Shown one piece after another: positions 35,666-41,376 of a stretch of DNA of 64,000 nt. The DNA comes from Paramecium tetraurelia. Its lineage: Eukaryota. The position numbers and the translations under genes are program-made. Under the pieces are notes generated by a model. That model made no database searches, was not told the DNA's origin, and saw nothing but the letters and a program-made list of their open reading frames with translations. The stretch lies in the NCBI GenBank assembly GCA_000165425.1, contig CT867994.1:62001-126000 (forward strand), in the 5' to 3' direction. Numbering within the stretch: the stretch's first letter is position 1; the number at the start of each line of letters is the position of its first letter.

Positions 35666-38600
35666 ATGAGCATAAAAAAAATATCAATACGAAACCTATT
35701 GTCATACAAAGCAATCGATTTAGAGTTAGGAGGCAATTTAAATATATTTGTGGGTAAGAATGGCAGTGGAAAGTCTAATTTTGTGAATGCATTGCTATTT
35801 GCATTAACAGATAAGTTTGGGAGTTTTGACAGGAAGATGATTGAAAATGTATGTATTTATAAACGAAAATATATTAAAGAATCTTATTTCAGATGAATAG
35901 CTGCCAATTTAGGTTTCCATCACTTTAGACAATGCAAATTAGAGATTGCCTTACAGCACTGAGGAAGTGACCATAATGAGACAAATGACTACAAAGGATG
36001 AGTTCTTTTTGAATGGAAAAGCTGCTACAGTCTCTCAGTTTAGTAATTTACTGCAATGTATTAATCTCTCCCGCTAAAATTATTACAATATTGTCAGACA
36101 AGGTAAGATAAGTAAGATTTCTTAAATGCGTGATGTTGAAGTGTTTGAGCTTTTAGAAGAAGTGAGTGGTGTGGCATTGTATGAGGAAAAGAAGCAAGAG
36201 ACAATGAATAATATAAAGTAAGCTTAATAAGAGAAAGAGGAGATAGTTAAAATTTTGAATGAGTTGGGTGCTTAAATTAAATAGTTGCATGATGAGAAGG
36301 AGGCCTTTAATTAATTGAAGGACATTTAGAAACAAATTTAATTACATGAAGTTTAGCTTTCACTAATTTCAGCTAAAAGCTTTTAACATTAATTGTTGGA
36401 TCTAAACACAGAGCAAAGCAGATTGCATAATCAATTGCAAAGTCTGATGTAATAGTAATAGGATTACAGCAATGCTTAATTCAAGGCAAATAAGGAGATA
36501 GAATTGTTTGATTAGTTTTTTAATGAAAATAAATAGAAAATATAAGAATTTGAAAAGGAGGAGTAGAATATGTTAAAACAATATTCAGATTTATCCATTC
36601 AATTGAATGAAGTTAGGGAAAGATTACACGCTTTAAAGAGTGTCAACAAATCAGCTATTGAAGAGGAGTTCAAAACAACTGAATAAAATCTTGACAAGGA
36701 AATGCTGAAAATCTAAGAATAACAAGTCAAAGTGGATAAATAAATTCAATATTTTTAAATCCTGTAAACTGATGATCCAGTTAAATGTTTCAAAGATGAA
36801 ATGCAATCTCTTACAAAACAGCTAGAAGGGTATCAGAAAGAATTTAAGAATGTTGAATTCAAAGTATCTCAAATTAACAAGGATTTGAATTAATTGAAAT
36901 AATAGAAATAGAATCAAATTAATGTTGGAGAAGTATAAGGCAACATCAAAAAAACAGAGGATAATCTATTGCAATTGAGAAAAAAACTGGAGTCTACTCA
37001 ACTAGATAATATGGAATTGTAAAAAACTAAAACACATTAACAACAGAAGTTATGTAAACTTTAGAATGAATAAGATATTGAGTGTAATCAACTTGATAAA
37101 TAATTGAGAGATATCTTCACTGCATCTATTATTAAAATTATGGAGTTCGCTGAAGAAAAAGGGTTGACTGTTTATGGAGTGTTCGCTTAATTAATGAATG
37201 TCAAATAGAAAAGGTTATTGCCTCTCATAGAAACTGCCAGTGGTCCTCGTTTATTTAGTCTAATTGTACCAGATACATAAACTGCTAAATAAATTATTGA
37301 TTTTAATAAAGACTAATAAGGATCAGTCTTGAGAATATACCCTCTTGATTTAATAGATGATAGAGTAACTCAATTCGATGCTCCAAAAGATACTATCAAT
37401 TTGTAAGATCAAGTCACCTTAAATGGGGATTTCGGCAAAAAAAAGTCTTTGATTGCTAAGGTCATTGGAAAATGGATTGCTGTTAAGGATTATCAGACTG
37501 CCTTAGACATTTCATCAAAGCACGAGATCAACTGCATCACTTAGGATAATGAAGTAGTCTATGCAGATAGTTTCTTAACTAAGGTAGGAGCAACAAGAGT
37601 TTAATAAAGCAAGACTATTTCATTACAAAAAATATTAGCAATGCATTAAGAAATTAAGATGTTGACTAAGTAGGATTAAGAGATGGAACAATAGATGGAA
37701 GAGGATTAAAATAAATTATTAGAAATTTAAAGAGAAATACAAAACAGTAAGAATAACTTAAACAATTTAATCTAATAATTATAATCTTAAGATACATCTG
37801 CTATAGAGAAAAAACAAAGAGAACTGGACGCACTTGAATAACTTGCAAAATAATTGGATATTCCTATTTAAGACACAAGTAATAGGATCAAGGATATTCA
37901 ATAAAAATTAAAAAATCCAAAACAGATTAAGAAAGGATTGACTGATGATGATATTAATACCTTATAGTAGTTGGTAAAAGAGAAATAACAATTATCCTAA
38001 TAAATTACAACTTTGATGAATAAGAAGAATGAAATTAAGATGAAATAGTAAAAGAAGGTTGATGTAAATAAGATTCAATAATTGGAGTAATAATAATCTG
38101 AACTAAAGTAATAAACAGACTAATTGAATATGTAATTAAAAGGAAAGCAGAAGTATCACTAAGAAATAATCGAAGTTTAGAATGAAAACAAAAAGAATTT
38201 GGCTCAAGCCTTAAAAGAAAGAGATAATGCTAAGTTAGAAAAGAGTAAAATAGATTTAAAAATTGATTCTATAAAAAATCAACAGACTGAGTTTGAGATG
38301 CAAGCTCAATAGTGTGTCAATTAATTAGAAACCATCGAAAAGGATAAAAGGTTGATTGATGCGTTCAGTGAATTAGATGAGCAATAATCTAAAAACTAAA
38401 TCATTAAGAAGATTAAAGAACTTAAGACTAAATTTAACCATAAATTTACTCAAAAACATTAAAGTTTATTTGAAAAATTAAATGAAATTGAAACAAGATT
38501 CTCAGATTACTAATAGAAACTATAAAATCTAAAGTAAATTTAATAAGATTTTGATAATCTTTGTGAAATTATGGACAAGAAGGCAGAAAGTCTATTATAG

Positions 38601-39080
38601 GATTAATTGTATAAAAGATTTGCTGAATACTTTAGACATTACTTTTTATAAATTGTAACTACTGGAGATTGTCAAATTAAGTTGATTAAAGGTTTAAGGA
38701 AGAACAATAAGAAAAATTGGGGAATCGACATTAAAGTTTCATTCAAAAATAAGGAAGTTTAGAATTGGACATCATTTTCAAGTGGAGAGAAAACAATAGT
38801 TGCCTTTGTCATTCTAATATCCTTGTAAAAATGCGATCCAGCTCCATTTTACATTTTAGATGAATTCGATGCTGCTCTTGATGACAATTACAGAAATCAA
38901 GTAGCTCAAATTATCTTGAATTTGTCAAAAGAATCTCAATACATTATTATTACATTTAGACCTGAACTCATCAGCTTAACTAGTGATTTAGTAACATTTT
39001 ACAAAGTATCACATCATAATTAGTAAAGTTCAGTCATCAAAACAACATAATAAGAAGCAAAGAAAATTCTCAAAGCATGA
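35666..39080 (+). CDS. SMC3: Cohesin subunit SMC3-like
   Basis: Walker A GKNGSGKSN, Q-loop YNIVRQGKI, LLEEVSGVALYEEKK, coiled coils, hinge (VYGVFAQL), C-terminal QKCDPAPFYILDEFDAALD and QYIIITFRPELI typical of SMC3. Confidence 0.88.
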
Positions 39081-39373: not shown

Positions 39374-40801
39374 TCATTGAGCTACAACCCAATTTTATAG
39401 CATTTCAATCTCTTCTTATATGTTTTTTCTTGCCTTTTCTTCGCTTCTTAGGTTGAATATTTTAGACTTTAAAAACTTTTATAGAACAGCAATTCTCCCT
39501 GATTTATAATCCTTATCTGGAAAGTGCGAATATTCCTTTCTTATATCATTAGCATAGACAGTATATGCATCAGACTCCAAAATAGACATATCAGCATCTA
39601 AAAATACCATCAAATCCTATAAATCATCTTCTGGTAGGAATGACACGTCAGTTTGATGACTTTTTGTTTGCAAGATAAAAGTTGATATAAGTTATGAATC
39701 TATATTGCAATCTTTAGCATATTATTAAAACAACAAGATACTTTTTTCTTCATTATCATTATTTCTAGGATAATAGATGGCATCGTGAAAGAAGGTTGCC
39801 AATTTTGCATTCTTCATATTTTTAGCTCCTTTTAATTATTATAACATATCATAAATGTGTCTTAAAGTGTGATAATACCTTTAAGGTTAGGAATAATAAT
39901 CAACTAGAATAGATTCAAACCAATATAGATTATCACTAACTGACAACCATTCAGATTTAAGTTCCAAATACTCTTATTCACTTAATCTATTTTTTTCTTA
40001 TATTTGTCCTCTAATTTATGAGGAAGATAGTTTAACATCTCCTTGATTATTCGAATTTTCTATAATGCCAATTATATATCCTTCTAATTCATTTAAGCCT
40101 CCCTCTTTCCTGAGGTTATTAATGTAGTCTAAAGAATTTTGAGTCTCTTGGGTGGCAATTAGTACTTCAAATTGTCCATTTTTTGTTGGTCCTGCAGGGT
40201 CGATTAATTCAGAGAAATTCAATTCAATATCAGGTCTGAAGAGCTAACAAAACTCTTTTACACATTTACAACGAGTCTCATAGGATTATAAGAAACCTGT
40301 TAATTTCTTTTTTTATAATAATACTTCTCCAGTTATTCCTATGGTCAAGTGTTCATTGACAGCCAACAAACTTAAACTTAAAAGTATTTTGTGTCCAATG
40401 TGTAAATGATCAAAAGTCCCACCATTAGCACCTCTTTTAAATTAATTTGCTAGTGGTCCTTCTTAAGAAAATTAGATTTTTTAAATTTATTGATTTTGTT
40501 TTGTTTGTATGTTTATTTCTTCTCCGTAATCTAAGTTGACTGTGAACTGGTATGTGTTTTTGAATTAAGTATTAAATAAATCAAAGATCACATTAAATTT
40601 AGTTGGATAATTTTGTGCTTTCTCATAAAGATGGAATAAAATGCGTTCATAAACTTTAAGATGCGTAATTGGTGTTCTTTTTAGATAAAGAATTATTTCT
40701 TCTTGATTAGTTTAAAGGTACTCTTCTAATTTCTGGTCTAGCATCTAAGTTCCTACAGAATCGAATGAACATACGATAAGTAATTTTTCGTGGTGTTTCA
40801 T
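39374..40801 (-). CDS. Phosphopantetheine adenylyltransferase (eukaryotic Cab4/COASY type) fused to an HD-family phosphohydrolase (COG4339-like)
   Basis: Single intronless 476-codon ORF: GGTFDHLHIGHK, LIDPAGPT, INNLRKEGGLNEL, KLSSSQIR; then YSQPQRYYHTLRHI, LATFFHDAIY, DNEEKS, FLDADMSIL, IRKEYSH, GRIAVL. Confidence 0.88.
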
Positions 40802-40808
40802 AATTAAA

Positions 40809-41376
40809 ATGAATAAAAATCAATCAGCACATTATATTACAAATAACTAATCGTATGGTGATGGTTGGCTATTACACAGTGGGTAACAATAAGTGGATAT
40901 GACATCATGTCCTGTACCTACCTACGCTGAAATAGTACGTCAAATGCAAGTGATGATTCTATTATTAACTAGATTAGGACTTTAGAAGAGCAGAGAAATT
41001 ACTCAAAAATAAACTGGTTGCTCAAACTATCGGACTTGAGTTGTCTTAACCCATTTCTGAAGAAGAAAAACAACGCAGGAAATTAGATAACAAGGTCCCT
41101 TCAAAGAAGTTTCATGTCACTGAATAGGAATACAAGGCTCCTCCTTAAGGAATTAATGTTGGTATAGATAAATGGTTGATAATAGGATTACCAATTTATG
41201 AGACATCTAATATGTAATATGGACAATTGAATCCAACTTCATTTGAGTTGATTGAGAAATATTATCCTAGAGATGCTCGATTCACTTAAGCCTTCTTGGG
41301 AGACACCTACAAATTTGATGGATTGAACACTAGCACTGGTTTCTCAAAAGTTCATAAGAAATTAGATGAATATTGA
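40809..41376 (+). CDS. Pierce/CFAP182-like (DUF4490) ciliary microtubule inner protein
   Basis: PIYETSNMQYG...YYPRDARFTQAFLGDTYKFDGLNT...SKVHKKLDEY*. The upstream in-frame segment from ATG 40809 carries a second YITNNQSYG motif. Alternative start at 40899. Confidence 0.7.

Follow-up and report, generated by a model that had tools for sequence, protein, structure and literature searches.

A phosphopantetheine adenylyltransferase fused to an HD-family hydrolase in Paramecium tetraurelia, with a possible role in coenzyme A repair

What is a hydrolase of an uncharacterised family doing at the end of an enzyme of coenzyme A (CoA) synthesis? On the minus strand of a 64,000-nucleotide stretch of Paramecium tetraurelia DNA (the window; positions below are counted from its first letter), the original prediction recognised one intronless reading frame in which a phosphopantetheine adenylyltransferase (PPAT) is joined directly to an HD-family phosphohydrolase, and it read the fusion as a sign that the hydrolase works in CoA metabolism. 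The five steps of CoA synthesis are generally regarded as a closed pathway, and the recurrent attachment of an HD domain to it suggests CoA damage or salvage that has gone unrecognised.

One expressed reading frame joins PPAT and an HD domain

The PPAT-HD fusion gene (P0001; 39374..40801, minus strand) is real, conserved, and expressed. It consists of a single 475-codon reading frame for a protein of 475 aa (an N-terminal domain, PPAT, and the HD domain), ends in a TGA stop at 39376-39374, and is open only in NCBI code 6, with 25 TAA/TAG codons read as glutamine, so that it is missing from the table 11 ORF list. In three stranded oligo-dT runs from one study, minus-strand RNA reads were present in every 100-nt bin from 39407 to 40820 (depth 0.17-8.8), no splice joint was listed within the ORF at a read length of 58 nt, and both flanking genes were transcribed from the opposite strand to the fusion gene. 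A spliced contig likewise crosses the ORF, and its only two gaps are the introns of the upstream gene, outside the ORF. Two separate transcripts would have undone the predicted fusion, and the continuous, unspliced RNA over the ORF speaks against them, with the continuity pieced together from 58-nt reads, none of which is a single molecule bridging the PPAT and HD domains.

The genome holds one paralogue (L002), which is also an intact fusion and shares 73% identity with P0001. The HD part is the most conserved between the two copies (84% identity, dN/dS 0.04, a rough ratio with dS near saturation), followed by the PPAT part (75%, dN/dS 0.17) and the N-terminal domain (66%, dN/dS 0.21), and the nearest relatives overall are Paramecium proteins, 80-85% identical over the C-terminal part. 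An artefact of mis-joined genes, or an intron that had been overlooked, was considered and ruled out by the single ORF, the intact paralogue, the orthologues in other Paramecium species, the jointless RNA, and the steady spacing from the PPAT motif to the HD motif (41-55 residues in 75 of 79 fusions).

The fusion gene is closely flanked on its upstream side by a divergent gene (40821-41370, plus strand) for a PIERCE1/2 ciliary microtubule inner protein (Pfam PIRC1_2, E 4.8e-21), whose transcript starts at most about 20 nt from the fusion start codon and whose introns measure 28 nt (at 40950) and 24 nt (at 41161). At eight positions between 40916 and 41289, all in this upstream gene, about one third of the RNA reads differ from the DNA, and these reads probably stem from a closely related paralogue or a different strain. 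The DNA upstream of the paralogue L002 is very similar to that upstream of P0001. An SMC-family gene (35847-39080, plus strand; SMC_N and SMC_hinge) converges on the fusion gene from the other side.

The protein up to residue 271 could be assigned with some detail. Residues 1-117 (40451..40801, minus strand) are modelled by AF2 as an alpha/beta domain, which by structure match is the counterpart of the N-terminal domain in animal COASY and fungal PPAT, and residues 118-271 (39989..40450, minus strand) form a PPAT domain of the eukaryotic/archaeal type by Pfam, NCBIfam, and a match to 3do8. The Pfam scan that had been proposed as a check returned CTP_transf_like over residues 127-264 (E 3.9e-7, 30.8 bits against a cut-off of 21), and the top NCBIfam model was PRK00777 for archaeal/eukaryotic PPAT (E 8.6e-26; 90.9 bits, under its cut-off of 104, which the relatives P0155 and P0282 pass). 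Both catalytic motifs were located in the translation where they had been predicted: the HxGH (HIGH) ATP-binding motif, H134-H137, occupies 40391..40402 within the string G-T-F-D-H-L-H-I-G-H at 40420-40391 (predicted at about 40391-40423), and the KxSS..R motif, the KMSKS equivalent, K257-R264, occupies 40010..40033, read as K-L-S-S-S-Q-I-R from 40033 to 40010 (predicted at about 40010-40035). The Archaeoglobus PPAT 3do8 was the top match in both sequence and fold, and residues 1-270 superposed on animal CoA synthase, over its N-terminal domain and PPAT, with a TM score of 0.85 (Atlas structure match). The two-domain AF2 model has a pLDDT of 92.5 and a pTM of 0.91, with a linker free of disorder, and in it the helix that follows the KxSS motif is continuous with helix one of the C-terminal domain.

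Over residues 1-270 the protein therefore shares its N-domain and PPAT structure, with HxGH and KxSS intact, with animal COASY (N-domain, PPAT, and dephospho-CoA kinase, DPCK) and the fungal Cab4-type PPAT; unlike animal COASY, it ends in an HD hydrolase, and DPCK is a separate gene here. A search of the genome with P0001 returned no second type of PPAT-like gene, with two matches that are both fusions. The N-terminal part is best explained as this ciliate's PPAT, which would convert 4'-phosphopantetheine and ATP into dephospho-CoA.

Distribution of the fusion in eukaryotes, prokaryotes, and viruses

A two-domain profile run against 1.84 billion representatives (50%-identity clusters) gave 13,590 clusters at E <=1e-10 (PPAT-only matches included); of the 150 proteins listed, 147 were new, and both PPAT and HD are present in 93 of the new clusters. 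A deep-alignment protein search recovered only 16 proteins, P. bursaria among them. Among 30 proteins that were looked up, the fusion turned out to be present in the ciliates Blepharisma stoltei, Tetrahymena malaccensis, and Pseudocohnilembus persalinus and in the foraminiferan Nonionella stella, with a triple PPAT-DPCK-HD form in the diplonemid Namystynia and the zygnematophyte alga Spirogloea, and HD alone in the sponge Oscarella. A third triple protein carries a JGI 'Mesen1' identifier, which we read as Mesotaenium. Among the matches listed, 15 of 16 long-spacer proteins have a CoaE domain between PPAT and HD. One algal protein of 1219 aa (P0220) has an epimerase domain before PPAT-DPCK-HD, which is possibly a gene-model merge. 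The HD domain had been described as taking the place of dephospho-CoA kinase, and this holds for the P. tetraurelia genome, where the CoaE genes lie on other contigs and P0001 has no CoaE match, but it does not hold as a rule, since the 15 triple fusions suggest that HD accompanies the kinase rather than replacing it. Such three-domain forms change the picture of how eukaryotic CoA synthases evolved.

Trees of the two domains agree for 84 eukaryotic-type fusions: the distance correlation was 0.44, against a maximum of 0.18 in 500 shuffles, and 14 of 17 strong HD splits were found again in the PPAT tree. The triple fusions cluster together (support 94), and P0001 groups with the oligohymenophorean ciliates P. 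bursaria, Tetrahymena, and Pseudocohnilembus (support 87-89). An HD tree of 249 rows (FastTree), from which domains of unsuitable length (too short or too long), near-duplicates, and roughly half the bacterial fusions had been excluded, separates the eukaryotic-type fusions from the prokaryotic rows, except for the reversed P0282, at a weak support of 84. The ciliate grouping and the congruent trees indicate that PPAT and HD were inherited together vertically over a long time, and a recent horizontal transfer into this lineage, which the HD phylogeny had been meant to test, finds no support. With the deep branches of the HD tree being weak, a single eukaryotic origin of the fusion is not proven.

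The bacterial coaD-HD fusions and neighbours that the original prediction suggested looking for do exist. The retrieved proteins include 97 bacterial-type CoaD-HD fusions, with source names from Alphaproteobacteria, Paceibacterota, Pacearchaeota, and Aenigmarchaeota, and further domain orders were CoaD-HD-CoaE (P0015), CoaD-CoaE-HD (L109, L117), a reversed HD-PPAT of the archaeal type (P0282), and viral HD-CoaD (L142, L160). In all, at least seven architectures join the HD family to PPAT/CoaD, involving two different PPAT classes, and all 14 partner domains scanned matched PPAT/CoaD models ahead of NadD models. Judged from these architectures, the fusion of this family to PPAT/CoaD recurs independently in microbes and phages.

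Co-occurrence points the same way in the microbial order of G001, comprising 201 small genomes, where 19 carry the HD family (match >100 bits) and coaD is fused or adjacent in 14 of these 19. Overall, coaD was found in 15 of the 19 carriers vs 42 of 182 non-carriers; without the seed genome and the unpublished G122, G133, and G183, three genomes that the 201-genome totals include and on which no claim rests, the figures were 14/17 vs 41/180 (Fisher p 1.5e-6, in a test that ignores relatedness among genomes). In G001 itself (L027), a bacterial-type coaD-coaE fusion directly precedes the HD gene, and CoaB was not found in this genome. Together, the seven or more architectures, the two PPAT classes, and a coaD co-occurrence far beyond chance in one order strongly support the Rosetta-stone inference of the original prediction.

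Elsewhere the association is sparser. Among the 80 best GTDB loci, mostly from Actinomycetota and cyanobacteria, three have coaD no more than 4 kb away, which exceeds the roughly 0.1-0.3 expected by our own estimate from genome size. Of 69 viral loci, 8 have coaD at such a distance, and three of these 8 appear to be a single locus. No neighbour was conserved across phyla around the 80 stand-alone prokaryotic HD genes, and 8 of 11 scanned ORFs that recur beside such genes have Pfam families, all unrelated to CoA. The 20 GenBank phage records are all annotated as hypothetical or as a generic hydrolase, and a viral fold search gave three matches at E <=0.001, none informatively named. In other proteins (P0265, P0283, P0246, P0144, P0020, and P0012/P0021-P0028), the HD family is also fused to GNAT acetyltransferase, HAD hydrolase, RidA/YjgF, nucleoside 2-deoxyribosyltransferase, and WW domains. 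RidA and HAD are damage-control families.

The pairing of PPAT and HD is already visible in databases, as automatic labels: PANTHER names PTHR21174:SF0 'Phosphopantetheine adenylyltransferase' (in the available part of PMC11898892), and JGI labels some fusions with both PPAT and HD names. An existing characterisation would have counted against the prediction, and we found no description of the fusion or of an activity of the HD family in the literature covered, which was largely article texts from outside subscription journals. New here are the eukaryotic branch, the PPAT-DPCK-HD synthases of algae and a diplonemid, the congruence of the trees, and the tests with CoaB and carrier proteins.

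The HD domain: conserved residues and fold

The C-terminal domain (aa 272-475; 39377..39988, minus strand) carries the conserved residues R308, H311, H315, H339-D340, N350-E351, T379, H382, D402, D404, E423, R436, and N460. Across 369 aligned domains, R308, H311, H315, H339, D340, E351, T379, D404, E423, R436, and N460 show 96-99% conservation, whether the member is fused or stands alone, and the metal ligands H315 (or H311), H339-D340, and D404 reach 98-99%; three of 18 triple-fusion rows are without several of these ligands. Because the ligands are so well kept and the HD part evolves at a dN/dS of 0.04 against 0.17 for PPAT, the domain looks active, and it is probably a working metal-dependent hydrolase.

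The C-terminal domain of P0001 itself has no Pfam family above cut-off (weak matches to G1_gp67_C and CofJ were disregarded as below it), but 26 of 69 aligned relatives match PF01966 HD weakly, HD folds match the model, and a profile search matched E. coli YedJ (E 1.2e-5) and BH2835 (E 4e-4), in both cases confined to the first 140 positions and leaving the conserved C-terminal helices (E423, R436, N460) outside. The features of the HD superfamily (the H...HD...D ligands and a helical HD fold) are present, with an H-x3-H...HD...D spacing like that of YpgQ (H25/H29/H58/D59/D124), and relatives are annotated by JGI as 'predicted metal-dependent HD superfamily phosphohydrolase'. The domain probably belongs to the IPR009218 / PTHR21174 family of HD phosphohydrolases, which, together with COG4339, we take to be its candidate home.

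The modelled domain (pLDDT 95) has a fold like that of class I phosphodiesterases (PDEs). In a structure search against 48,161 chains, ranks 1-16 were all class I cyclic-nucleotide PDEs, with PDE7A first (4pm0; Z 15.0, rmsd 4.0, 199 of 203 residues aligned), and 2pq7 (Z 12.8), YedJ (10.0), YpgQ (9.6), SpoT (8.6), and YqeK (8.2) followed, with YqeK, YpgQ, and YedJ aligning over fewer residues than the PDEs. What is shared with class I PDEs (PF00233; PDE7A, PDE9A, and PDE4) is the fold of the whole domain, at a Z of 13-15 that carries less meaning for helical folds, and the order of motifs, which a low-threshold profile alignment paired as YH..H/FHN..H, FHD/CHD, IL.T/IL.TD, D.D.S/HTSD, and IR.EY/V..EF (HD family/PDE). 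The differences are a length of about 200 vs about 320 residues, an identity of 13-18%, and an arginine where the glutamine switch is placed. Foldseek also puts PDEs first (best E 0.025), with nothing in the PDB at E <=0.001, and PF00233 matched neither P0001 nor appeared among the families shown for 69 members. A profile-profile proof of PDE homology failed, with an hhalign probability of 1.2% for a PDE alignment of 12 shallow sequences from this genome.

Two arginines bear on how this likeness is to be read. Class I PDEs carry a base-binding glutamine (PMC8177086, available portion), and by motif spacing the invariant R436 may occupy its place, followed by an aliphatic residue and not by Phe. 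The same portion of that source gives a conserved Arg ahead of the first His as a mark of HD phosphatases and not of PDEs, which the invariant R308 fits. The fold thus speaks for a phosphodiesterase and one arginine for a phosphatase. In the class I PDEs of this genome that reach far enough (among L091-L102), QE.xF lies near the invariant-glutamine position, where by spacing Glu may replace the glutamine.

A possible role in repair or salvage of phosphopantetheine

We propose that the rigidly fused HD hydrolase serves CoA metabolism by returning 4'-phosphopantetheine from a blocked or damaged form to PPAT, a reading whose activity, product, and substrate are all predicted and to which we give about an even chance of being right. 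The hydrolase would cleave a P-O bond in the blocked or damaged phosphopantetheine compound, and the freed 4'-phosphopantetheine would be handed back to PPAT as repair or salvage. The link to CoA metabolism is supported by the fused or adjacent partners, which represent the two steps downstream of 4'-phosphopantetheine. Replacement or bypass of the upstream pathway by HD finds no support: pantothenate kinase (PanK) and PPCDC are present in this genome, and in the order of G001 CoaB is equally frequent among coaD genomes with the HD gene (7/15) and without it (19/42). With PanK and PPCDC present and CoaB not depleted, repair fits better than sole supply. Although PanK, PPCDC, PPAT, and DPCK are all encoded here, PF04127 detected no PPCS, a result that a divergent eukaryotic enzyme could explain.

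The closest precedent is NadD-YqeK, in which a nicotinate-nucleotide adenylyltransferase, likewise a HIGH-motif cofactor enzyme, is fused to or clustered with an HD diphosphatase and for which a proofreading role has been proposed (PMC9426524, as far as available). It differs in pathway and in HD family: YqeK (8wmy) reached a Z of only 8.2 over 140 residues, the BH1327 profile gave E 0.76, and of the six-ligand YqeK motif H...HD...H...H...D the domain here has just one further conserved His (H382). The PPAT-HD pairing thus extends a known kind, a cofactor adenylyltransferase with an HD hydrolase, to an uncharacterised partner family. Some observations weigh against our proposal: most stand-alone HD members have no CoA link, and fusions to unrelated domains occur as well; and the kinship to PDEs is structural only, with YedJ best by sequence and R308 as an HD-phosphatase mark.

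Among the substrates that this proposal allows, our lead is pantetheine 2',4'-cyclic phosphate, which taken by itself is a tentative choice and probably wrong. Attack of the pantoyl 2'-OH on the pyrophosphate of CoA or dephospho-CoA yields this six-membered cyclic diester. Its ring opening at the secondary alcohol, mirroring the conversion of cAMP to 5'-AMP, would give exactly the substrate of PPAT. In its favour, it resembles cAMP in being a six-membered cyclic diester, offers no base for a glutamine switch, and entails no futile cycle. None of the papers found reports that cyclic phosphopantetheine arises by damage in cells; one shows that CoA rises in PANK2-null cells given a prodrug of cyclic phosphopantothenate type (PMC8861153, in its available part). 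By analogy with NadD-YqeK, dephospho-CoA analogues with the wrong nucleotide come next and seem slightly less likely again. Phosphopantetheinyl-serine or phosphopantetheinyl peptides from digested carrier proteins are possible, as are dephospho-CoA RNA caps, PPAT being described as capping RNA with dephospho-CoA in the accessible part of PMC10761072, and all would leave the same product.

Metabolite repair, named in the original prediction, is thus the best class of function, and the removal of pyrophosphate or hydrolysis of ApnA that it also named is possible and less favoured, given the Z of YqeK against the 15.0 of a class I PDE. In the broader form of that alternative, the HD domain would act like YqeK and YpgQ and clear away by-products that the adenylyltransferase makes from nucleotides (Ap4A/ApnN, PPi, or damaged NTPs), so that the PPAT reaction is driven forward or protected while pantetheine compounds are left untouched. 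NadD-YqeK is a pairing of this kind, with a YqeK that hydrolyses both Ap4A and 8-oxo-GTP (PMC9426524, same available text); the best sequence matches (YedJ and BH2835) and Arg308 agree with it, and a model for an archaeal PPAT/NTP-phosphatase fusion exists (PRK01170). We nevertheless consider it unlikely, as YqeK, YpgQ, and YedJ align less well than the PDEs, and a partner that was CoaD/PPAT in every scanned case and never NadD is too selective for a general nucleotide cleaner. The frequent triple fusions and operons with DPCK, and a PDE-like fold that suits a cyclic phosphate, would also agree with a hydrolase that serves the kinase step by repairing the ribose phosphate end of CoA (2',3'-cyclic CoA or 2'-phospho iso-CoA to CoA or dephospho-CoA). 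This seems quite improbable beside the two-domain fusions with PPAT (89 eukaryotic-type and 97 bacterial-type) vs a single DPCK-HD, a count biased by searches seeded with PPAT fusions; the lone DPCK-HD row clusters with the triple fusions and is likely to be a fragment.

The HD domain could also be a genuine cyclic-nucleotide phosphodiesterase of a minimal class I type, with a fusion that ties CoA synthesis to signalling or is incidental; this would account for the closest folds, the shared motif order of the low-threshold alignment, and the many HD members without a CoA neighbour. We hold it to be quite doubtful, with R436 and an aliphatic residue where, by motif spacing, glutamine and Phe are read in PDEs, with 72 PDEase_I matches already in this genome, and with repeated independent fusion to one enzyme not being expected of an unrelated signalling enzyme. 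AcpH is HD-like. An AcpH/PptH-like phosphodiesterase that takes phosphopantetheine off the holo-carrier proteins of the same cell, so that PPAT can recycle it, would release a product equal to the PPAT substrate, but a PF00550 carrier domain was found in only 3 of 14 genomes with coupled coaD and HD (counted by hand in incomplete genomes), and this reading is very unlikely. Nothing supports the remaining idea of the original prediction, a writer and eraser pair for protein adenylylation: beyond a loose architectural likeness to GlnD-type enzymes, the transferase is an ordinary PPAT and the sole PPAT-type gene found here, the partners in other genomes are CoaD and CoaE, and we consider the idea scarcely credible.

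Returning to repair of phosphopantetheine, its widest version is bolder and improbable as a whole. The HD family would be a missing, near-universal CoA repair enzyme, minimal and class-I-PDE-like, that opens cyclic 2',4'-phosphopantetheine, a dead-end product of CoA breakdown, to 4'-phosphopantetheine; and the early eukaryotic CoA synthase would have been a PPAT-DPCK-HD chain, surviving in diplonemids and zygnematophytes, with DPCK lost in ciliates and foraminifera and HD lost in animal COASY. Should the fold kinship be true, class I PDEs would have in this family a small relative that may act on a non-nucleotide cyclic phosphate. The repeated attachment of this large family to the step that follows 4'-phosphopantetheine, from eukaryotes and bacteria to archaea and phages, yields a short and testable list of substrates, and the intronless gene with its retained paralogue makes expression and knock-down easy in this ciliate.
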